Shown: positions 28,829-56,934, numbered from the stretch's first letter. The stretch is 64,000 nucleotides of DNA from an uncultured Pseudomonadota bacterium (GCA_903900265.1 CAIUMM010000226.1:6893-70892); one strand, 5' to 3'. A program made the numbers and translations. Notes: generated by a model not told the origin, from the sequence alone.

Positions 28829-31033
28829 TCACTCCCCGCCGACAAGCAGCGCAAGGCGCTCGCGCAGCTCCGCCTCGCCGGAGTGCAGCACGGGCTCGAC
28901 GCGCAACGCCCAAACCGACTCATCGGGAGGCAAGCGCGCGGCGTCCTTCTCCGTCGTGATCATCACGTGGGTGTCGCGCCACGCCTCAAAGGCCTGCAGG
29001 TCGATCCATACATAGCGGTGATGATCGGGAAACACCCAGGTTCGGTCTATATTTACGCCAAGCTGGCGCAGCTGGGCAAAAAAGCCCTCGGGATGCGCGA
29101 TCCCCGCAAACACCCCGGCCGGGCGATCGGGGAGCGCGTTCAAGGGCAAAAGCTGACGACGAAACAGCCACCCGACGGCGCGGTACCGTGCGCGCACCAC
29201 CAACGTGTCTGGGCGTACAAAGCGCCGAATCATCGCAGGGACGGCCTGTTCGGGCTCGGCATGGTTGAGCCAAAGCACGTCGGCGCGGGCGATGCTGGAC
29301 AACGGCAACCGTCCCGAGCCGGCGGGGATCATCCCGCCGCCCGCTGGAAAACGAACGTCCACCACCACGACCTCGAGATCGCGCGCGACCTCAGCGACCT
29401 GCAGGCCGTCGTCGAGCACCGCGACCGCCGCATGCGTTTGAGGGGATGCCTGCGTAAAAACCCGTGCGACCGCCGCCGCCCGATCGGGGCTAGAGACCAC
29501 CGGCAAGCCACGCCGCGCGAGCATCGCCAGCTCATCGCCCAGCTTGTCGGCCTCGCCGTCGGTCCGAAGATCGCGGCCGGCGTCTCGCCCAAACCCGCGC
29601 GACACGACTACGCCGTTCATCACGCCGGCGATCCACGCCGCGACAGGCGTCTTCCCCGCACCGCCGGCGGTCAACGCACCGACCGAAACTACGTGGCCGC
29701 CCTCGATCCGACGCGGGCGCGCGAGGGCAAACCGTGCGGCGACGCCGACGCGCCAAAAGGGGGCCAACGGGAGCAGCCAGGGCCGAAGCACGCGCTCGTC
29801 CGGGACGTCGGCCTCCCACAGCAGCTCGAGCGCGCGCACCGCGTTGTCGGCGGCACGAGCCCCTTTGGGCGTTGCCCTCGGGCTCTGCAACGCCGCGTCA
29901 AACGCCGAGGCCAAGGCAGCTGGGGTGCGCGCCACAAAGCCGGCGACGCCGTCCCAAGCGCCCGGCGTCGAGTGCACGTAGGGCCCATGCACCACCGGGC
30001 AACCCGAGCCCAGCGCTTCTGCTGGAGAGTGTCCGCCCACACTTGGGGTGAACGTACCCCCGACAAACGCCGCGCTGGCGCGCTGGTAGAGCGTCCCCAG
30101 CTCGCCGATGGTGTCGAGCAGCAGCACGTCCACGTCGGGCTCCACGCGCGCGCCGATGCGCGTGCGGCGACGGACGACGAGACCGGGCGACCGTGCAGCC
30201 TGAGCGGTGATGAGCGACCAGACCGCCTCAAACCGGCGCGGATCCCGAGGTGCGAGCACCAACAACGGCCGTCGCCCTCCAGCTTGCGTCTCCGGCAAGG
30301 CCGCTACGGCCTCCAACACCGATAGCTCCTCGCCTTCGTGCGTGCTGCCCGCGACGATCGTTGGCCTGGACCACTGCAGCGCCGGTACCCCAACCGGCGC
30401 CTCGGCCTTGAGGTCCCCGACCGAGAAGCCCCCGAGCAGCGACGCCGTCGCCGCGTCCGTGGTGATCCATTCGACGTCCCGGGTGAGCGCAGCCCACAAG
30501 GAAGGCCAGGCGCGCAGGCGCGCGAGGCCGGGCCCAATACGCGCGTTCACGACCGCCACCGGGATCTGACGCACACGACACATCCCCAGCAACACCGGCC
30601 AAAGCTCGGCTTCTACGAGGACCAGACAGCGCGGGCGCACTCGATCCAGAAAAGCCCCCACGGCGAAGGGGTGGTCTATCGGCGCGAACACGCTCTGGTC
30701 GGCACCGACGGCCTGCTCTCGAGCGGTGTCCGATGTACACGTTCGGATCACACCGAGCGCAGGTTGTGCCTCGCGAAGGGCCCGGATCAACGCCGCGCAC
30801 ACTCGACCTTCGCCCAAGCTCGCTGCGTGGATCCACACCGCCCCGGGCTCGACCTCCGGCGAGACCAAACCCCAGCGCTCCCGGCGTCGACGGCGCAACC
30901 TCGGGTGCACGATCAACAGGGCGGCGAGGACCGGAGTGAGCGCCCAAAGGAGAGCGCGGTATGCGAAAAAAAGCAGCGAGAACACGGTACCGGAGCCTAT
31001 CCGATCCCAGCCCCTCGTCGTGCGTTCGTGCAA
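28829..31033 (-). CDS. waaA-lpxK: bifunctional fusion: Kdo transferase (WaaA/KdtA) N-terminal half plus tetraacyldisaccharide 4'-kinase (LpxK) C-terminal half
   Basis: N-terminal half: VWIHAASLGEG and a GT-B-like fold. C-terminal half: LpxK P-loop VVSVGALTAGGAGKTP and FPDHHRY near the C-terminus. ATG 31033 leaves only 28 bp to divergent holB; GTG 30985 is an alternative start. Confidence 0.85.
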   Translation of the reverse strand: MHERTTRGWDRIGSGTVFSLLFFAYRALLWALTPVLAALLIVHPRLRRRRRERWGLVSPEVEPGAVWIHAASLGEGRVCAALIRALREAQPALGVIRTCTSDTAREQAVGADQSVFAPIDHPFAVGAFLDRVRPRCLVLVEAELWPVLLGMCRVRQIPVAVVNARIGPGLARLRAWPSLWAALTRDVEWITTDAATASLLGGFSVGDLKAEAPVGVPALQWSRPTIVAGSTHEGEELSVLEAVAALPETQAGGRRPLLVLAPRDPRRFEAVWSLITAQAARSPGLVVRRRTRIGARVEPDVDVLLLDTIGELGTLYQRASAAFVGGTFTPSVGGHSPAEALGSGCPVVHGPYVHSTPGAWDGVAGFVARTPAALASAFDAALQSPRATPKGARAADNAVRALELLWEADVPDERVLRPWLLPLAPFWRVGVAARFALARPRRIEGGHVVSVGALTAGGAGKTPVAAWIAGVMNGVVVSRGFGRDAGRDLRTDGEADKLGDELAMLARRGLPVVSSPDRAAAVARVFTQASPQTHAAVAVLDDGLQVAEVARDLEVVVVDVRFPAGGGMIPAGSGRLPLSSIARADVLWLNHAEPEQAVPAMIRRFVRPDTLVVRARYRAVGWLFRRQLLPLNALPDRPAGVFAGIAHPEGFFAQLRQLGVNIDRTWVFPDHHRYVWIDLQAFEAWRDTHVMITTEKDAARLPPDESVWALRVEPVLHSGEAELRERLALLVGGE

Positions 31034-42559: not shown

Positions 42560-42684
42560 GAGGGCTCCTCTCCAGACGGACTGGGGTGCAGGGAACGGAC
42601 GACCTATTCAATATAGTCCCTTGTCGTCCTCCGCCGGCGCCGTGCCCGTGCATGTTGACCGCAATTTCGGATAGCCGTGCCCAC

Positions 42685-43632
42685 ATGATCGTCGGAATTC
42701 CCAAAGAGACCCTCCCTGGAGAGGGCCGCGTCGCGTGCGTCCCCTCCGGTGTGCGTACGCTGCGCGCCGCCGGACACGCTGTCCTCATCGAACAAGACGC
42801 CGGGCTGCGCAGCGGGTTCGGCGACGACGAGTACATTCGAGCCGGCGCTGAGGTCGTCGGAACCGCCGAAGATTTGTACGAACGCGCGGCGTTGATTTGG
42901 AAGGTTTTAGCGCCGTCCACCTACGAGAGCAGCTTGTTTCGGAGCGGTCAACGCCTGTTGGCGTTGCTGCCGAGGGGAGCCGCGCTGCCGAAGGACGCGC
43001 GCGCCGTGGACGGGCTGCTCTGGCCCGGGCCCGCCGGCGACTTTCCCGCGCGCGTCGCGATGAGCGAGATCGCCGGGCGACTCGCCGTGGAGGCCGCGAG
43101 TCACGTACTTCAGCAGCCAAACGGCGGCCGGGGGCTGCTCTTGGGTGGCGTCGCCGGTGTGCCCCCCGCGGAGGTGGTCATCCTCGGCGCCGGTGTGGCA
43201 GGGCGGGGAGCCGCCGATCTCGCCCTCGGAATGGGCGCGCGCGTCACCGTCCTCGACACGTCCCTGCCCGCCCTCCGTGCGCTGCGAACCACCACCCTCG
43301 TTGCGACCCCGGCGGCGATTGAGCGGGCGCTCGCGCAGGCGGACGTCGTCATCGCAGCCGTGCGCGTACCGGGAGAGCCCGCCCCGCGCCTGTGCCGCGC
43401 CGCACACTTGACGCTGATGCAACCTGGCGCCGTCGTCGTGGATCTGTCGATCGCCGAGGGCGGCGCGTTCGAGACCACGCCACACACCTCGTTGCACGAG
43501 CCCAGCGTCATCGTCAACGGAATTGTGCATATCGGAGTGCCCAACTTCGCTGGGGCTGTACCGCGCACCGCCTCCGTTGCGTTGTCGCACGCGTGGATAG
43601 GCTGCGCGATGCAGCTCGTCGCAACCCAGTAG
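42685..43632 (+). CDS. alanine dehydrogenase / PNT-family NAD-binding protein (short form)
   Basis: Track ORF 42586..43632; ATG 42685 (MIVGIPKETLPGEGRVACVPSGV...). Rossmann motif VVILGAGVAGRGAA. About 315 aa, shorter than canonical Ald. Confidence 0.75.
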   Translation: MIVGIPKETLPGEGRVACVPSGVRTLRAAGHAVLIEQDAGLRSGFGDDEYIRAGAEVVGTAEDLYERAALIWKVLAPSTYESSLFRSGQRLLALLPRGAALPKDARAVDGLLWPGPAGDFPARVAMSEIAGRLAVEAASHVLQQPNGGRGLLLGGVAGVPPAEVVILGAGVAGRGAADLALGMGARVTVLDTSLPALRALRTTTLVATPAAIERALAQADVVIAAVRVPGEPAPRLCRAAHLTLMQPGAVVVDLSIAEGGAFETTPHTSLHEPSVIVNGIVHIGVPNFAGAVPRTASVALSHAWIGCAMQLVATQ

Positions 43633-50200: not shown

Positions 50201-50830
50201 ATGATCGACGCCCGAACCCTGTTGGAGCGCGCCGCGGAGCAGCGCCTTTCGTGTGAGTTGATGCCTCGGAACGCCGGAGCGTGGACACGTGCGACCGTAG
50301 AGCGCGTGGAGCGCGGCGGTGTGGTGGTCCGCGTGCCCGACGGAGGCATCCTGCCGGGTGCGGATGTGCGCTGTTGGATTCGCGTCGATGACGTCCCCTA
50401 CACCTTCGATGCGAGCGTCGTACGTACGAGCGTGCCGGTATCGGACCGCACAGAGTCTGGGGTGATGCTGGGTTTTATCGACCGTTTGGAGATCGCAACG
50501 CGCACATCGGGCGGCCTCATCCTCGAAGCGCTCCCTCCAACCGGCGGCCCGGTGTCGCTCTTAGGCGGGTCGGTGCAGGTGGTCGATCTTGAGCCTCAGG
50601 TCTGGACAGTGACGACACCCTCGGACGCGGCGCTGATCTTCGTCGAAGGGGGAAGCCTGCGCCTGCGCATCGCGTTGCCCGATGCGCCGCCGATGGAGCT
50701 CACCGCGCGGGTGCGGCGCCTGACACACGGCAGCGGACACCTGCTCTACGCGCTGGCGATTCAGGACGTGGAAGACGCGGTGCGCTACGCGGACTTGCTC
50801 GACGCCGCACGGTCCACGCTCCAGCTTTGA
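50201..50830 (+). CDS. hypothetical protein, PilZ/YcgR-like two-barrel pattern with degenerate c-di-GMP motifs
   Basis: 209 aa. Two beta-rich halves resemble PilZN plus PilZ. I cannot find a canonical RxxxR...DxSxxG, so assignment is weak. Confidence 0.4.
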   Translation: MIDARTLLERAAEQRLSCELMPRNAGAWTRATVERVERGGVVVRVPDGGILPGADVRCWIRVDDVPYTFDASVVRTSVPVSDRTESGVMLGFIDRLEIATRTSGGLILEALPPTGGPVSLLGGSVQVVDLEPQVWTVTTPSDAALIFVEGGSLRLRIALPDAPPMELTARVRRLTHGSGHLLYALAIQDVEDAVRYADLLDAARSTLQL

Positions 50831-50852
50831 TCGCGGGGCGTTAAGCCGACGC

Positions 50853-51977
50853 ATGGCCAGCACGACCCGCGTTCAGTACGATCTCGCCCGAATCCAGACC
50901 TTCTTCCCCGCGCTCGCAGCGCTTGGAAACCGCTTCGCTGCGGAGCGTCCTTGGGAGGGCCTGACCATTGGGCTGAACATGCACCTGACCACGCTGACCG
51001 CCACGCTGGTGCGCGAGCTGATGCTGGGAGGCGGTCGCTTTGTGCTCGCGGCGGCCAACCCTGCGACCACCGACGGTGCTGTGGTCGAGTACCTCCGTGA
51101 GCTCGGCGTCGAGGTGCACACCGGAGCAGGTCGCTCCGACGCACAAACCGCTGTCGTCGCCGCAAAGCCCGATCTCGTCGGCGACGTAGGCTTCGCGCTC
51201 GGCGAGGAGCTGCTTCGCGCGTCCTTCTCGCCGCCGCTCGGGCTCGTGGAGATCACCGGCACCGGCATCGATCGCCTCCGGAAACGGGCCGCGATTCCGT
51301 TCCCCGTGCTCAACATCAACGATGGAAAGCTGAAGACCGCGATCGAAAACCGTCACGGCGTCGGCGAAGGCCTGTGGCAAGCGTACACCGCGCTCACCGG
51401 ACAGCACCTCGCGGGCCGGCGCGTACGTGTGATCGGCTACGGGCGCGTGGGGGCAGGCGTAGCCGCGTACGCCAAAGCCGGCGGCGCGGTCGTCGAGGTC
51501 GTAGACACCGATCCGGTACGCCAGCTCATCGCGCGGTTTGACGGCCATGTACCTGTAGAACCCGACGCGGTGACCCGGCCGCACGTCGTGGTGACGGCCA
51601 GTGGGACGGCAGGCGCGCTCTCCCTCGCTCACATGGCGAAGCTCCCCGAAGACGCCGTCGTCATCAACGCTGGGCATGGTCCCGAGGAGATCGACGTCGC
51701 GGCCCTCGCCGACGAAGCGACGGAGGTGGACCACATCGGTCCTCGGGTCGTGCGATACCGCCACCCCGCCGGCGGCCACATCGTGGTGCTCGGCCACGGA
51801 AGCCCGCTGAACATCGTCATGAACGCTGGCTCCAACGAGCCCGTCCTCCTGCACTTTACGCTGCTCGCGCTGGGACTTCGTTGGCTGCGGGAAGCGCCGC
51901 GGCCCGCTGGGGAGAACAAGCTTCCCCACCATCTGGAAGCCGAGGTTGCCCGTCTCTGGTTGCCGGGAGTGCGGTAG
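50853..51977 (+). CDS. adenosylhomocysteinase-family protein, short divergent paralog
   Basis: 374 aa. Collinear with the AHCY fold (NMHLTTLTATL, NPATTDG, TGTGIDRL, LNINDGKLKTAIENRHG, IGYGRVGAG, NAGHGPEEID), but many canonical residues are substituted and it is shorter than typical AHCY. Confidence 0.7.
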   Translation: MASTTRVQYDLARIQTFFPALAALGNRFAAERPWEGLTIGLNMHLTTLTATLVRELMLGGGRFVLAAANPATTDGAVVEYLRELGVEVHTGAGRSDAQTAVVAAKPDLVGDVGFALGEELLRASFSPPLGLVEITGTGIDRLRKRAAIPFPVLNINDGKLKTAIENRHGVGEGLWQAYTALTGQHLAGRRVRVIGYGRVGAGVAAYAKAGGAVVEVVDTDPVRQLIARFDGHVPVEPDAVTRPHVVVTASGTAGALSLAHMAKLPEDAVVINAGHGPEEIDVAALADEATEVDHIGPRVVRYRHPAGGHIVVLGHGSPLNIVMNAGSNEPVLLHFTLLALGLRWLREAPRPAGENKLPHHLEAEVARLWLPGVR

Positions 51978-52658
51978 TTGTCGATCTCCGCCACCGGGCT
52001 GGACGAAGCGCTGCTGAACGCCTGGCAGGCGATGAAATCGCAACGTTGGGCAACGGCCCTCGACGCGCTGAACCTGCCGCCGGAGCCCGAGCGTCCCGGG
52101 GCGATGGCACGCCTGCACGCCTTTCGAGCGCAGGCGTCTTTCGAGCTTGGGAAACTTGAAGAAGCCGAAAAAGCAGCCGCAGCGGCGGTAACCTGGGCGA
52201 AGAAAGAGCCAGGCCAAGCGGGCCTCGCGCCCTTACGCGCCTTGCAAGCACGCATCCTCACCAGTCATGCCGCTCACAAAGCCGCGGCGATCGAGCGCCA
52301 AGCGGACGACGCCCTCGCCGATGAGCCGGACAGCACCATCCCTGCAGGTCCAGATGGAGCCGCGATGCGCGTGCGCAAAGCGAACGTGCTGCTCGACCGA
52401 GGGGATCGCGTCGCCGCCGAAACGTTGTCGCTGGCCGTATGGTCCGACCCTGCGGTCCCGCTCCGGGAGCGCATCCTCGCCGCGTTGACCCTCGCGCGCT
52501 GCGGCGACGCAGCGGAGGCCTGGATCACCCGCGCGCACGCGGCGGCCGACGCCGCGGACGACCAGAACCTGCTCGCCGCCGTGGCACGCGCAGCGCGGAT
52601 GACCGGCGTGACCCTCCAATTGATTCATCCCTTCGCGAACCGCGACGGGGCGGGGTAG
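51978..52658 (+). CDS. TPR-like helical hypothetical protein
   Basis: TTG 51978 lies immediately after the upstream TAG. Ala/Leu-rich helical repeats. No other motif. Confidence 0.5.
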   Translation: MSISATGLDEALLNAWQAMKSQRWATALDALNLPPEPERPGAMARLHAFRAQASFELGKLEEAEKAAAAAVTWAKKEPGQAGLAPLRALQARILTSHAAHKAAAIERQADDALADEPDSTIPAGPDGAAMRVRKANVLLDRGDRVAAETLSLAVWSDPAVPLRERILAALTLARCGDAAEAWITRAHAAADAADDQNLLAAVARAARMTGVTLQLIHPFANRDGAG

Positions 52659-52676
52659 ACCCGAAGAGGTGCGGTG

Positions 52677-53144
52677 ATGCGGATCGGAATTTTACGACAT
52701 GCGAGCGCGGAGGACCACGCGCCGACCGGCGCAGACTACGACCGGCGCCTGACGCGCGAAGGCGAATTAGAGCTGGCGCACCAGCTGGATCTCATCCAGA
52801 GCTTTGGTTGGATCCCCTCGATCATCCTCTACAGTCCGCTGGTCCGAACAACGCAGACCGCGCGCGCCGTCGCCGCGCGCCTCCCCGGCGTCCCGATGGA
52901 GGCGACCGACGTCATCCCCCTTGGACTGTTCGAGGAGATCCTCCAAGCCTGTGAACCCCACCGCGCCCCGCTGATCGTCGGCCATGAACCTACGCTCGGG
53001 CGCCTCGTCGCTCGCCTGCTCCACGCACCGCCTTCGGCGACGCCCTTCGAAAAAGCAGGTTTCGCTCTGCTTGAAGTCGACCGCATCCCTGCGTTTCGTC
53101 CCGCCCGCATGGTGTTGTTTCTGCCGCCTCGCCAGATGCGGTGA
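52677..53144 (+). CDS. SixA-type phosphohistidine phosphatase family protein
   Basis: Track ORF 52674 (GTG); ATG 52677 has GAGG 7 nt upstream. Motifs ILRHASA (RHG-type), YSPLVRTTQTA, VGHEPTL. Confidence 0.75.
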   Translation: MRIGILRHASAEDHAPTGADYDRRLTREGELELAHQLDLIQSFGWIPSIILYSPLVRTTQTARAVAARLPGVPMEATDVIPLGLFEEILQACEPHRAPLIVGHEPTLGRLVARLLHAPPSATPFEKAGFALLEVDRIPAFRPARMVLFLPPRQMR

Positions 53145-53201
53145 CTGCGGCGGTGACTACGGAGGCGGAAGAGTATAGATCGCGCCGCTTACGAGACTGC
53201 A

Positions 53202-55430
53202 ATGGCCGTCAACCGCGCTGGCATCGTCGACAACAACGTGACCGCCCTGCTCCGCACGCTCGGGGGAGAGGCGAACGGAAACCCTGATCTGGAGCTACGT
53301 CCAGGCACCTCCCTGACCGGACGACGAGCGCTCGCTCTGTTCCAAACCCAGGTGGAGAGCCGACATCTCGACCTTGCGGCACGAGCGCTCAAAGCACGAA
53401 ATGAGTGTTTTTACACCATCGGGTCCTCGGGGCACGAAGGCAACGCCGTGGTCGCGGCCGCGGCGTCTCCCAAAGACATGGCCTTCTTGCACTACCGCTC
53501 CGGCGCGTTCTTCATCGAGCGTGCCCGACAAGTGCCAGGCGCCACCCCGCTGATGGACATCCTGCTGGGCCTGTGCGCGTCCACGGATGAGCCCATCGCG
53601 GGCGGACGTCACAAGGTGTTTGGGAGCCTTCCCCTCCAGATTCCGCCTCAAACCTCCACCATCGCCAGCCACCTCCCCAAAGCCGTAGGGTGGGCGGTCG
53701 CGATCGAGCGTCGCAAACGACTGCTTCAGTGTGAAGAGAACCGCATCGCGATCTGCACCTTCGGGGACGCTTCGGCGAATCACTCCACCGCGACCGGCGC
53801 CATCAACGCCGCGCAGTGGTTCGCCCACCGCGGCGAGGATTGTCCCGTGCTGTTCGTGTGCGAGGACAACGGCATCGGAATCTCCACCGAGACCGCGCCA
53901 GGATGGATCCAAGCCGCCTACGGCGGGCGCCAAAACCTCGCGTATATTCAGGGAGATGGGCTGGATCTACCCGATGGTTGGGACGCCGCTCAGGCGGCAG
54001 TTCATTGGGTTCGCACCCACCGACGCCCGTTGTTTCTGCACCTGCGCACCGTGCGCCTCCTCGGCCACGCAGGTTCAGACGTCGAGTCCACCTACCGGAG
54101 TCCAGCCGAGATCACCGCCGAAGAAGCCAAAGATCCGCTGCTCTGCACAGCTCGGCTGCTCGTCGCGGCGGGCATCGCGACCGGCGAGGAGCTGGCATCG
54201 CTGTACGAAGGGGTGCGGGAGCGCGTGGCCGCCATCGCAGAAGAGTGCATTCAGCGTCCGAAGTTCAAGACCGCCGCCGAAGTCATCGCCCCGCTGGCCC
54301 CGCACCACCCCGACGCGATTCGGCAGGAAGTGGAACGCAAGCATTCGGCGTCTGAAGCGAAGCCGATCGCGGAAGCCGAAAAACCTCGTCACCTCGCGGT
54401 ACAGATCAACCGCGCGATCGCGGAGATCTTCGCGAAGTACCCCGAGGCACACCTGTTTGGGGAGGATGTAGGAAGGAAAGGCGGCGTCTACCATGTCACG
54501 GCTGACCTCCAAAAGCGCTTCGGAGCCGACCGCGTGATCGACACGCTGCTCGACGAACAGACGATCCTTGGGATGGCGTTAGGCGCCGGACAAGCCGGAT
54601 TGCTCCCTCTGCCGGAGATTCAGTACCTTGCGTACTTCCACAACGCGTGTGACCAGCTCCGCGGCGAAGCTGCGTCACTACAATACTTTTCCAACGGCCA
54701 GTTCCAGAACCCTATGGTGCTGCGCATCGCGGGGTATGCGTATCAAAAGGGCTTTGGCGGACACTTTCACAACGACAACTCCATCGCGGCGCTGCGAGAC
54801 ATTCCGGGTATCATTATTGCGTCACCCGCTCGCGGCGACGACGCGGCCGCCATGTTGCGCACCTGTGTCGCGGCCGCGAAGGTCGACGGCGCGGTCTGCG
54901 TCTACCTGGAGCCCATCGCGCTTTACATGACCCGCGACCTCTATGCGGACGGCGATGGCGAATGGGCCGCTCCCTACCCCGCGCTCGATGAGCACGTCGC
55001 CGTCGGATCCGGACGCGTCTACCCACCGGCGGAAGGCAAGGGTGATCTCACGATCATCACATGGGCGAACGGGCTCTACATGAGCCTCCGCGCCGCCCGG
55101 GTGCTGCGCGAGGAGCACGGCGTCAGCTGCAGGGTGTTGGACCTACGCTGGCTGAACCCGCTCCCCATCGCCGACATTGTCCGCGAAGCAAGCGCGACCG
55201 GGAAGGTCTTAGTCGTTGACGAGTGCCGCCGCACCGGTGGGCTCTCGGAAGCCATCTTTACCGCGCTCGTGGACCAAGGCGTGAACGCCGCGATGGCCCG
55301 AGTCACCGGAGACGACGTGTACATTCCCCTTGGCGGGGCCGCCAATCTTGTCCTGGTACAAGAGCCTCAGATCATCGATGCAGCACGGCAATTGATGGGC
55401 CGCGCTGCTGTTTTGGAGACACACGTATGA
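53202..55430 (+). CDS. TPP-dependent 2-oxo acid dehydrogenase E1 component, fused alpha and beta subunits
   Basis: 742 aa. Alpha part has TPP motif FGDASANHS...VLFVCEDNG. Beta part has FGEDVGRKGGVY, the transketolase Pyr domain and a C-terminal domain (RVLDLRWLNPLP). Confidence 0.85.
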   Translation: MAVNRAGIVDNNVTALLRTLGGEANGNPDLELRPGTSLTGRRALALFQTQVESRHLDLAARALKARNECFYTIGSSGHEGNAVVAAAASPKDMAFLHYRSGAFFIERARQVPGATPLMDILLGLCASTDEPIAGGRHKVFGSLPLQIPPQTSTIASHLPKAVGWAVAIERRKRLLQCEENRIAICTFGDASANHSTATGAINAAQWFAHRGEDCPVLFVCEDNGIGISTETAPGWIQAAYGGRQNLAYIQGDGLDLPDGWDAAQAAVHWVRTHRRPLFLHLRTVRLLGHAGSDVESTYRSPAEITAEEAKDPLLCTARLLVAAGIATGEELASLYEGVRERVAAIAEECIQRPKFKTAAEVIAPLAPHHPDAIRQEVERKHSASEAKPIAEAEKPRHLAVQINRAIAEIFAKYPEAHLFGEDVGRKGGVYHVTADLQKRFGADRVIDTLLDEQTILGMALGAGQAGLLPLPEIQYLAYFHNACDQLRGEAASLQYFSNGQFQNPMVLRIAGYAYQKGFGGHFHNDNSIAALRDIPGIIIASPARGDDAAAMLRTCVAAAKVDGAVCVYLEPIALYMTRDLYADGDGEWAAPYPALDEHVAVGSGRVYPPAEGKGDLTIITWANGLYMSLRAARVLREEHGVSCRVLDLRWLNPLPIADIVREASATGKVLVVDECRRTGGLSEAIFTALVDQGVNAAMARVTGDDVYIPLGGAANLVLVQEPQIIDAARQLMGRAAVLETHV

Positions 55431-56446
55431 GACGTGTCGTATTGGTTTGTCCGGGCCGTGGCTCTTACACGCGCGACCTGCTTGGGACGCTGAGCGGCAG
55501 CGCGAGCCTGCCTTCGGTGCAGACCACCGACGCATTTCGGCGCGCCCTCGGCCGGCCGCCCCCAAGCGAGATGGACGCAGCCGAGAGCTACAGCTCACGG
55601 CTTCACGTCGCGGGAGAGAACGCGTCGGTGCTGACGGCCACCTGCACGCTCGCCGACGCGGATCGGGTAACTCAGGCGGATCAAGTCAGGGTGGTCGGGG
55701 TCATCGGCAACTCCATGGGTTGGTACACCGCGCTCATCGTCGCAGGTGCGCTTCCGGTGACGGAAGGCCTTCGTTTGATCGAGACGATGGGCCAATACCA
55801 AGCCAACAACGTCATCGGCGGACAGCTCGTCTACCCGCTCTGTGACAACGATTGGGCCATGGAGACGACCGAGCCGCTCGAAGCCGCGTTGCGGGACATC
55901 CCCGGCCTGTATGTGTCGATACGGCTCGGTCGCCAGATCGTGTTGGGCGGGACGGAGGACGCCATCCGCGCCGCCATCCGCGTGCTCCCGGAGCGCAAAT
56001 CCGGGGAGCGCATCGCGCCGTTTCAGCTCCCGCTGCACTCGGCGTTTCACACACCGCTGCTGGCCGAGACCGCGCAGCGAGCCCAGTCCGATCTGGGCGA
56101 TCTCGCGTTCGCGCCGCCCGAGGTTCCGTTGGTCGATGGCCGCGGACAGGTTCACTTCCCACGCCACGCTGACCCCGACGCCCTCCGCGACTACACGCTC
56201 GGCGCTCAGGTCACCGCGCCGTATGACTTCACCGTTTCGGTGCGCACCGCGCTTCGGGAGCTGGCCCCGGACGCGTTCGTGTTGTTGGGGCCGGGTGCAA
56301 ATCTCGGCGGCGCCACCGCCCAAGCGATGCTCGACGAGGGCTGGGCGAGGATGCACACCAAAGCCGATTTCCTCGAACGCCAAAGCCGGTCGCCGCTGCT
56401 GCTCAGCTTGCTGCGCCCCGAACAGCGGGCGCTGGTGCTGGGTTGA
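55427..56446 (+). CDS. acyltransferase-domain protein (FabD / PKS AT-like)
   Basis: Track ORF 55223..56446; ATG 55427 overlaps the E1 stop (ATGA). Nucleophile elbow GNSMGWY; downstream LPLHSAFHTPLL (xAFH motif typical of AT domains). Confidence 0.75.
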   Translation: MRRVVLVCPGRGSYTRDLLGTLSGSASLPSVQTTDAFRRALGRPPPSEMDAAESYSSRLHVAGENASVLTATCTLADADRVTQADQVRVVGVIGNSMGWYTALIVAGALPVTEGLRLIETMGQYQANNVIGGQLVYPLCDNDWAMETTEPLEAALRDIPGLYVSIRLGRQIVLGGTEDAIRAAIRVLPERKSGERIAPFQLPLHSAFHTPLLAETAQRAQSDLGDLAFAPPEVPLVDGRGQVHFPRHADPDALRDYTLGAQVTAPYDFTVSVRTALRELAPDAFVLLGPGANLGGATAQAMLDEGWARMHTKADFLERQSRSPLLLSLLRPEQRALVLG

Positions 56447-56934
56447 ACCGCAGCGAGCTCTCCCGCACCGTGCTCGCGCTGAAGGAGGTGCAAAGAGCGG
56501 GATGGGCGCGCGCAGGGCACAAAACCGGCGAGTCGGTGGCCGATCACTCGTGGTCTGTAGCGATGTTGGCGCTGATCCATTGCCCGCCGGAGCTCAACCG
56601 CGAAAAGGTGCTCACGATGGCGGTGCTTCACGACCTCGCCGAGCTGCGCGTCGGAGACATCACGCCCCATGACGGGGTAGCTCCCGCGCGAAAGCACGCG
56701 TTGGAAGATGCGGCGATGGCCGAGTTGCTCGCCGAGCACCCCGATTTGCTGGCGATCTGGCGAGAGGGAGAGCTGCGGGTGTCTCCTGAAGCCAGATTTC
56801 TGAAGCAGCTCGATCGGCTCGATCTCGGCCTGCAAGCTACGCGTTATCAAGAACACGGCTACATCTCCGAGGCCGCGGAGGCCGAGTTTCGAGCATCCGC
56901 GGGGCCTCTGCTCATCGACGCCCCGACATCTTAG
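56443..56934 (+). CDS. HD-domain phosphohydrolase (YfbR/HDDC2-like 5'-nucleotidase family)
   Basis: TTGA overlap with the upstream stop. Motifs ESVADHSWSVAMLA, LHDLAELRVGDITPHD. Confidence 0.75.
   Translation: MNRSELSRTVLALKEVQRAGWARAGHKTGESVADHSWSVAMLALIHCPPELNREKVLTMAVLHDLAELRVGDITPHDGVAPARKHALEDAAMAELLAEHPDLLAIWREGELRVSPEARFLKQLDRLDLGLQATRYQEHGYISEAAEAEFRASAGPLLIDAPTS

Follow-up and report, generated by a model that had tools for sequence, protein, structure and literature searches.

2-Oxo acid dehydrogenases are textbook E1-E2-E3 machines, and the known exceptions, OdhA and DHTKD1, still use an E2 core of the CAT fold. DHTKD1 is a homodimeric E1 of the kind found in 2-oxoglutarate dehydrogenase (OGDH). 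This E1a of the mammalian 2-oxoadipate dehydrogenase takes its E2o and E3 on loan from the 2-oxoglutarate dehydrogenase complex. In the actinobacterial OdhA/KGD system, the E1 is joined to an acyltransferase devoid of a lipoyl domain, with the lipoyl group provided in trans by E2p and with a shared E3 (PMC10415282), and in natural-product pathways QncN, QncL and QncM bring together an E1-like thiamine pyrophosphate (TPP)-dependent enzyme, lipoyl/E2 functions and an acyl carrier protein (ACP) (PMC6335953). Here we analyze a 64-kb stretch of DNA from an uncultured Pseudomonadota bacterium (GCA_903900265.1 CAIUMM010000226.1:6893-70892; hereafter the window), which encodes a fused alpha-beta TPP-dependent E1 followed by an acyltransferase (AT) with the fold of FabD and by an HD-domain protein, and we report that the AT accompanies this E1 family across bacterial phyla and in marine eukaryotes.

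Like DHTKD1, the E1 encoded in the window is an orphan that lacks an E2 and E3 of its own and that would act ahead of glutaryl-CoA dehydrogenase (GCDH) in lysine and tryptophan catabolism. Unlike DHTKD1, it is of the alpha-beta type and has a FabD-like partner, of which DHTKD1 has no counterpart, and any function shared by the two would be analogous rather than orthologous because of this difference in E1 type. As in OdhA, the E1 is joined to a lipoyl-less acyltransferase (through coupled genes in bacteria and within a single open reading frame (ORF) in eukaryotes), but a FabD-fold transferase and an alpha-beta E1 take the place of the CAT-fold E2 core and OGDH-type E1 of OdhA. The resemblance to QncN/L/M lies in an E1-type TPP enzyme outside the classical complexes that would hand an acyl group to a thiol carrier, whereas the lipoyl domain, E2-type transferase and ACP encoded in that cluster were not found at any of the present loci. 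We propose, with a probability that we place at roughly 40%, that this E1 is an orphan enzyme of the 2-oxoadipate type, that the FabD-fold AT off-loads its acyl product to CoA, and that lipoyl groups and E3 are supplied in trans.

The fused E1 and its acyltransferase partner

The E1 scored above the Pfam cut-offs for E1_dh (114 bits), Transket_pyr (66 bits) and Transketolase_C (70 bits), the same three domains that make up the alpha and beta subunits of pyruvate dehydrogenase (PDH), branched-chain 2-oxo acid dehydrogenase (BCKDH) and acetoin E1s. Alignment to solved BCKDH and PDH E1s revealed conservation of the TPP/Mg motif (FGDAS..N / CEDNG), of the activating beta Glu (in LLDE) and of both active-site His residues, namely the alpha His in GHAGSD, equivalent to BCKDH His291, and the beta His in GGHFHNDN, and all of these elements are invariant in a 12-sequence alignment spanning several phyla. 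In contrast with the canonical enzymes, the phospho-Ser adjacent to the alpha His is replaced by Ala, and the protein falls below every NCBIfam cut-off: its best match is the PDH E1 beta model (145 bits against a cut-off of 321), and the alpha models yield 92 bits against 411. Its relatives likewise score under the PDH and BCKDH cut-offs.

A search of 72,556 plasmid records returned 708 matching records, all of them within the <60% identity band. Among the matches listed, five records (one from Nonomuraea, two from Ruegeria, one from Shewanella and one from Legionella) are 49-56% identical to the window E1, whereas the other 25 are canonical PDH, BCKDH or acetoin E1s with under 30% identity. 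This low identity to canonical E1s (at most 30%), together with NCBIfam scores far below the cut-offs, argues that the E1, as judged from its sequence, is a member of a distinct and widespread family apart from canonical PDH and BCKDH E1s, and not the canonical BCKDH E1 that the earlier note on this DNA had considered as a possible outcome.

The AT gave a borderline match to Pfam Acyl_transf_1 (33.4 bits against a cut-off of 32.7) and contains GNSMG (residues 94-98) and HSAFH (residues 204-208) motifs. Its AlphaFold2 model has a predicted local distance difference test score of 92.8, and the best PDB folds retrieved by Foldseek are FabD and polyketide synthase (PKS) acyltransferases, with a TM score of ~0.75 and ~21% identity. 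The predicted fold is shared with FabD and with the trans-acting or loading ATs of PKSs: a GxSxG motif forms the nucleophile elbow, the catalytic His lies in an xAFH motif, and a small subdomain is ferredoxin-like. Ser96 (GNSMGWY) and His208 (HSAFHTP) align with Ser92 and His201 of FabD, and this dyad is invariant in the family alignment from bacteria through eukaryotes.

Several features separate the AT from FabD. It presents GNSMGWY for GHSLGEY and a Met or Leu at the position aligned to Arg117, the malonyl-carboxylate-binding Arg of FabD, and the PGQGSQ loop of FabD reads PGRGSY, with an invariant Arg in place of Gln11. Furthermore, the AT lies outside any fab or PKS cluster, has no ACP gene nearby (acpP, fabH and fabF are all absent from the 64-kb window) and is obligately linked to E1. 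Against the fabD equivalog TIGR00128 it scores 54.3 bits, where the cut-off is 260.9. Given this score, far under the cut-off, and the replacement of both Arg117 and Gln11, the AT is distinct from housekeeping FabD, the identity that had also been entertained for it. The family is compact: a search of 1.84 billion representative proteins yields 168 clusters at E <= 1e-30. At FabD position 11, within the active-site loop, the invariant Arg might bind a dicarboxylic acyl group of greater length, and its gain in combination with the loss of Arg117 may fit the pocket to such a substrate. We also noted a 391-aa predicted protein (P0197) in which the E1 beta part, represented by its first ~155 residues, runs straight into the middle of the AT; rather than a natural architecture, this probably reflects a chimeric assembly or a deletion.

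The conservation of the pair was assessed from both sides. On the AT side, a one-genome-per-species scan identified 224 AT relatives, and 80 loci were fetched, 71 of which had enough flanking sequence for E1 adjacency to be scored and 75 of which served for the overlap and HD counts. Greedy ORF calls gave many shadow ORFs in high-GC loci, and conclusions were based on tblastn and Pfam. In 69 of the 71 loci the AT gene has a same-strand E1 gene directly upstream, and the pair overlaps in 60 of 75 (by 4 nt in 45 loci and by 8 nt in 11). The pair is found in Myxococcota, Acidobacteriota/Holophagae (including the cultured Sulfidibacter corallicola), Marinimicrobia, Oligoflexales and Planctomycetota. 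Furthermore, E1 and AT form one ORF in marine eukaryote contigs, where three distinct fused sequences were recovered (P0219, P0271 and P0272); the fusion-bearing contigs also hold septin, metacaspase and ART genes. The E1 part of the eukaryotic fusion contains an intron (L088, 4355-9788; also L089 and L090), and these contigs are 63-65% GC. The exceptions to E1 adjacency are two Myxococcota-like loci (L012, 8001-9436, and L013, 2855-4284) that carry AT and HD with no E1 in the upstream flank, which extends over 8 kb in the first and ~2.85 kb to the contig end in the second.

On the E1 side, the sample comprised 80 loci from metagenomes, with E1s sharing 52-72% identity with that of the window, and 67 of these loci were informative for the AT. 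By neighbor joining, the window falls into a clade that has both AT and HD; elsewhere in the tree, clades carry AT but not HD, or lack an AT. The AT depends on the E1 family, and the E1 family does not always come with the AT. No neighbor besides E1 and AT is common to all phyla among the Acidobacteria, Planctomycetota, Oligoflexales and other loci compared. Additional cross-phylum partners were considered and rejected, the neighbors in Acidobacteria, Planctomycetota and Oligoflexales being unrelated to one another (two-component, chemotaxis, MotAB, protease, NYN and nitroreductase genes).

Taken together, the near-universal co-occurrence across phyla on the AT side and the eukaryotic fusions argue that E1 and AT are functional partners rather than chance neighbors, which upholds the proposal of the earlier note that the two form a non-canonical unit. 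The accompanying suggestion that both AT and HD travel with the E1 holds at the AT-side loci for the AT only, the HD gene being confined to a single clade. We found no description of an E1 paired with a FabD-like protein in the literature searched, which is not proof of novelty. The standard set of E1 domains in Pfam, and the public annotation of relatives as 'alpha-ketoacid dehydrogenase subunit alpha/beta' and 'ACP S-malonyltransferase', would fit an ordinary arrangement in which a canonical BCKDH or PDH E1 relies on distant E2 and E3 genes and has AT and HD as unrelated neighbors. Conservation and fusion (adjacency in 69 of 71 loci, overlaps and eukaryotic fusions) already contradict this explanation. 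It is also at odds with the identity gap separating the five listed relatives (49-56%) from the other listed matches (<30%), with NCBIfam scores well under the cut-offs and with the failure of the AT in the FabD comparisons, and we regard it as barely credible.

Linkage to glutaryl-CoA dehydrogenase and the fate of the acyl group

The components missing from a conventional complex were sought by Pfam scans of the large ORFs of the window and by a six-frame phmmer search, which alone covered the small ORFs, using AceF, Lpd, lipoyl domains, GcvH and AcpP as queries; the E. coli aceF-lpd control was detected. Neither approach revealed an E2, E3, lipoyl, GcvH or AcpP homolog in the window, confirming the absence reported from a first reading of the sequence, and none was present in the ~2.1 Mb of flanks of ~170 family loci. 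In contrast with the PDH, BCKDH and acetoin E1s, the present E1 never lies beside E2 or E3 genes at the loci searched, its partners being the FabD-fold protein and/or GCDH. Furthermore, no ACP, ketosynthase, lipid, fatty-acid or polyketide gene is linked at any of the ~170 family loci.

An acyl-CoA dehydrogenase gene adjoins E1 in Ruegeria, Shewanella, Legionella, Marinimicrobia and a eukaryote contig, and these five, together with a soil-metagenome clade, make up six settings in which a GCDH ortholog is found beside E1. In Ruegeria sp. THAF33 the operon reads LysR / pyridoxal phosphate-dependent aminotransferase - GCDH - E1 - AT, with overlapping genes. The order is dehydrogenase - E1 - AT in Shewanella, E1 - dehydrogenase (overlapping) in Legionella and E1 - AT - dehydrogenase in Marinimicrobia, and in the eukaryote contig a GCDH-like gene is divergently adjacent to the E1-AT fusion. 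The four bacterial E1-linked dehydrogenases are 42-71% identical to one another, and the eukaryotic one reaches 36-51% over a long aligned segment. Comparison with the PDB was restricted to the Ruegeria and Marinimicrobia proteins. The former matched Burkholderia GCDH with 640 bits and the human enzyme with 556 bits, and the top ten matches of the latter comprise nine chains of (putative) GCDHs and Brucella 4w9u, deposited as an acyl-CoA dehydrogenase. By these matches, the Ruegeria and Marinimicrobia dehydrogenases are clearly predicted to be GCDHs. In addition, a GCDH-like gene lies at most 2.5 kb upstream of E1 in 26 of the 46 E1-centred metagenome loci informative on this point.

The step that feeds GCDH in lysine and tryptophan catabolism is that by which 2-oxoadipate is oxidatively decarboxylated. 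The Ruegeria aminotransferase is a generic class-I enzyme that would fit the preceding step, from 2-aminoadipate to 2-oxoadipate. Since GCDH is the recurrent linked gene, and with the Ruegeria aminotransferase in addition, the linkage suggests that the E1 serves the catabolism of 2-oxoadipate to glutaryl-CoA, and the E1 is probably of the 2-oxoadipate type. We found no bacterial assignment for the step from 2-oxoadipate to glutaryl-CoA in the literature searched.

Other neighborhoods of the family differ in their gene content. In Legionella adelaidensis (L094, 8905-12277) the E1 overlaps the GCDH-like gene and there is no AT, and in Nonomuraea gerenzanensis (L095, 9001-11202) the E1 stands alone, in a record listed as a plasmid yet 11.85 Mb long and almost unannotated. 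The soil clade without AT (L120-L175; for instance L160, 5776-6801, and L145, 9260-10156) has a glutathione S-transferase gene between GCDH and E1, and an adenylate cyclase-FHA gene after E1. In Oligoflexales (L070, 9166-12960, and L083, 6469-10365), a PF04199 'cyclase' gene and an aldehyde dehydrogenase gene follow the AT. PF04199 is the kynurenine formamidase family, by which a link to tryptophan catabolism would be possible; these two genes lent only weak backing to the idea that this flank is a kynurenine-pathway cluster. An acyl-CoA dehydrogenase encoded 6-8 kb downstream in Myxococcota loci is 27-33% identical to the GCDH set and was set aside as belonging to a different subfamily. A role in methionine or dimethylsulfoniopropionate metabolism (4-methylthio-2-oxobutanoate with a DmdC-type dehydrogenase), prompted by the adenosylhomocysteinase (AHCY)-like gene of the window, was discarded when the linked dehydrogenases proved to be GCDHs.

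That E2, E3 and lipoyl genes are never linked to the E1 family at the loci searched would also be in keeping with non-oxidative chemistry, in which the E1, acting without lipoyl, would be a decarboxylase, a carboligase or a TPP enzyme of the elimination type, and the AT would acylate or deacylate a small-molecule product. Phosphoketolase and sulfoacetaldehyde acetyltransferase are TPP enzymes that form acyl-TPP with no external oxidant, and they provide a precedent for such chemistry. Nevertheless, both His residues for lipoamide acylation are invariant, the linkage to GCDH implies a CoA thioester at the oxidised (acyl) level, and no partner genes for another product were seen, which makes non-oxidative chemistry highly unlikely.

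A different fate for the acyl group would be that of a starter unit, with the E1 and distant E2 and E3 proteins making an acyl-CoA from which the AT loads a non-malonyl acyl group onto ACP, leading to lipids, biotin (through pimeloyl-ACP) or secondary metabolites. The close structural relatives of the AT are all acyl-CoA:ACP transacylases. Loss of Arg117 is typical of PKS loading ATs that handle non-carboxylated acyl groups. The AT likewise lacks this residue, and 4rl1 is among its fold matches. Glutaryl-CoA is also known to prime the synthesis of pimeloyl-ACP by BioZ (PMC7645780), and QncN/L/M demonstrate that E1-like enzymes feeding an ACP exist (PMC6335953). In contrast, the absence of ACP, ketosynthase and fatty-acid/polyketide genes at the ~170 loci and the catabolic nature of the genes that are linked (GCDH and the aminotransferase) speak against a starter-unit route, and there would be little reason for the AT to be fused to the E1 if free acyl-CoA, further downstream, were its only substrate. 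We consider this route unlikely, and the linked genes, among which GCDH recurs, show no counterpart of the branched starter units that the earlier note had suggested for iso-fatty acids or for secondary metabolism.

For 2-oxoadipate catabolism, we infer a mechanism, in its substrate, product, oxidant, lipoyl supply in trans and off-loading role of the AT, that would be built on a two-protein core, the orphan fused alpha-beta TPP-dependent E1 and the co-translated FabD-fold Ser-His AT. The E1 would decarboxylate a 2-oxo acid, most likely 2-oxoadipate, and would reductively acylate a lipoyl arm lent in trans by another 2-oxo acid dehydrogenase complex, as is the case for mammalian DHTKD1 and actinobacterial OdhA. 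Ser96 of the AT would then take the acyl (glutaryl) group and hand it to CoA, which is the job of the E2 catalytic core. The lipoyl arm would be re-oxidised by a shared E3, and glutaryl-CoA would pass to a GCDH that we propose to be encoded elsewhere in this genome. The HD, SixA-like and AHCY-like genes would play no part. A lipoyl arm supplied in trans is the simplest reading: no E2, E3, lipoyl or ACP gene is linked, yet the E1 keeps the His residues for reductive acylation. Since the AT is co-translated with the E1 or fused to it, it most likely sits beside the E1 and would off-load the acyl group via acyl-Ser96. Serine-enzyme chemistry on glutaryl-lipoyl thioesters appears feasible by analogy with ABHD11, a serine hydrolase that acts on these thioesters (PMC12643935). 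It is a more doubtful proposition, which we advance tentatively, that the FabD-fold AT is a non-homologous replacement of the E2 core and, with the alpha-beta E1 and borrowed lipoyl, constitutes the bacterial and algal enzyme for the conversion of 2-oxoadipate to glutaryl-CoA. In the most radical version of such a replacement, the acyl group would be handed to CoA without any lipoyl carrier.

The ABHD11 precedent also lends itself to a repair or thioesterase role. As a glutaryl-lipoyl thioesterase, ABHD11 is needed for the 2-oxoglutarate dehydrogenase complex to stay functional once glutaryl adducts arise (PMC12643935), and the AT might similarly strip glutaryl adducts from borrowed lipoyl arms, or hydrolyse an acyl-thioester, protecting the donor complex and making no acyl-CoA. 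The Ser-His dyad is compatible with hydrolysis, acyl-hydrolase variants of trans-ATs exist (the PksE-type 5dz7 is among the fold matches) and the AT is optional for the E1 family, as would be expected of an accessory factor. However, free glutarate as the product would need a CoA-transferase before GCDH, and none is linked at the Ruegeria, Shewanella and Legionella loci. Moreover, stoichiometric coupling and fusion suggest a function in the main pathway. We regard a repair role as distinctly unlikely.

Several points weigh against the 2-oxoadipate mechanism as well. No FabD-fold enzyme is known to take an acyl group from dihydrolipoamide. Among the 67 informative E1-centred loci, the AT lies beside E1 in 11 and no adjacent AT is present in 56, and the Legionella and Nonomuraea E1s also lack an adjacent AT. 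With the AT adjacent in so few of these loci, the E1 appears intrinsically independent of it; the E1 can evidently function where no AT is linked, presumably paired with an E2 of the usual kind, and what the AT would add is then hard to account for. No GCDH ortholog was found within ~8 kb in the window or in the whole Myxococcota-like clade to which it belongs, so that the assignment of the substrate rests on relatives that are ~45-50% identical, and the GCDH adjacency in the soil clade may reflect a single inherited arrangement instead of many independent events. Finally, the negative result for E2 and E3 covers only the window and the family flanks.

Organization of the locus and its clade-bound companions

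The ORFs, domains, motifs and gene overlaps described in the earlier note were all recovered (Table 1), and the starts of E1, AT and HD coincide with those called independently on the identical contig in the public archive. The seven-gene co-directional array with short gaps that had been reported at 50201-56934 is borne out by measurement, the first four gene junctions having gaps of 22, 0, ~15 and 57 nt and the last two being the overlaps. The 4-nt overlap between AT and HD is present also in two relatives (L005 and L006), and a purine-rich run at the distance of the GGAG element from the AT start recurs among relatives. The E1 stop and the AT start fall within a perfect hairpin of 6 bp (ACACGT-ATGAG-ACGTGT; 55415-55437 region), counterparts of which occur in only some relatives. 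Promoter and terminator scans were uninformative, with counts equal to those of shuffled sequences.

Table 1. Features of the gene array in the window, with positions counted from its first nucleotide.
Feature	Position	Strand	Remarks
PilZ-domain protein, first of the co-directional array	50201..50830	+	PilZ, 29 bits
Adenosylhomocysteinase-like paralogue, 374 aa	50853..51977	+	Pfam AdoHcyase_NAD
Hypothetical protein, 226 aa	51978..52658	+	No Pfam or NCBIfam match
SixA-like histidine phosphatase, 155-156 aa	52674..53144	+	His_Phos_1
Fused alpha-beta thiamine-diphosphate E1, 742 aa	53202..55430	+	E1_dh + Transket_pyr + Transketolase_C; predicted distinct orphan E1 family
GGAG Shine-Dalgarno-like element within the 3' end of E1	55415..55418	+	8 nt ahead of the AT start codon
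ATGA stop/start overlap, E1/AT	55427..55430	+	Read directly in the sequence
FabD-fold Ser-His acyltransferase (AT), 339 aa	55427..56446	+	Predicted dedicated partner of the E1 family
TTGA start/stop overlap, AT/HD	56443..56446	+	Read directly; public gene call picks the same start
HD_3 (YfbR-like) metal-dependent phosphohydrolase, 163 aa	56443..56934	+	Clade-restricted operon passenger

The HD protein matches Pfam HD_3 with 115 bits (cut-off 22.5) and falls below the NCBIfam 5'-deoxynucleotidase equivalog NF003009 (24 bits against a cut-off of 122). Its gene adjoins the AT in 55 of 75 loci, all of them in the Myxococcota-like clade, and is absent from every locus of a distant phylum. The HD protein is a passenger of the Myxococcota-like clade of the window, outside the conserved unit, and the conserved trio of E1, AT and HD once envisaged for this locus was not borne out.

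The genes upstream of E1 present a similar picture. The AHCY-like paralogue gave 148 bits to solved AHCYs and 192 bits against an NCBIfam cut-off of 275; it lies upstream of E1 in many Myxococcota loci and is conserved within that clade only. Counterparts include L002 (9521-11092, minus strand), L030, L035 and L037, and in several relatives a canonical AHCY of 523 aa is also encoded, just past HD and on the other strand. The 226-aa hypothetical protein has tblastn matches between the AHCY-like and SixA-like genes in relatives. The SixA-like gene, which scores 56.6 bits with the sixA model (cut-off 74.5), is likewise upstream of E1 in relatives, and the PilZ gene has no tblastn match in any related locus. 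We regard the HD_3, SixA-like, 226-aa and AHCY-like proteins as clade-bound operon companions. A PADLOC scan for anti-phage defence, covering the six genes from AHCY-like to HD, gave no match, and a defence role was dropped. Many metagenome-assembled genome records carrying the Myxococcota-like locus (L009, L016, L019, L022, L026, L033, L034 and others) are titled Klebsiella pneumoniae, Bifidobacterium breve or Enterobacteriaceae, and these taxonomic titles are evidently wrong.

The best-matching metagenome-assembled genome records suggest that the source bacterium, with its high GC content of about 66%, belongs to the Myxococcota. The remainder of the window consists of housekeeping genes, such as those for AlaRS, RF, kinases, an ABC-F protein and a KdtA-LpxK fusion. 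The latter is an apparent fusion, a single 734-aa ORF (28829-31033, minus strand) in which the N-terminal domain of a Kdo transferase is joined to LpxK, the lipid A 4'-kinase. An AlaDh_PNT gene (42586-43632) was considered as a saccharopine dehydrogenase and rejected as an ordinary alanine dehydrogenase.

Possible implications for acyl transfer and lysine catabolism

Current annotations of the pair are generic, the E1 being labeled 'thiamine pyrophosphate-dependent enzyme' and the AT 'ACP S-malonyltransferase', and the latter label is probably wrong. If true, the conserved pairing of an E1 with a FabD-fold protein would be a new way to build the acyl-transfer half of a 2-oxo acid dehydrogenase, and the linkage to GCDH provides a concrete, testable candidate for the step from 2-oxoadipate to glutaryl-CoA in lysine and tryptophan catabolism. 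Cultured hosts exist in Ruegeria sp. THAF33, Shewanella aestuarii and Sulfidibacter corallicola, and the candidate occurs in abundant aquatic groups, among them Marinimicrobia, roseobacters, planktonic Myxococcota and picoeukaryotes.

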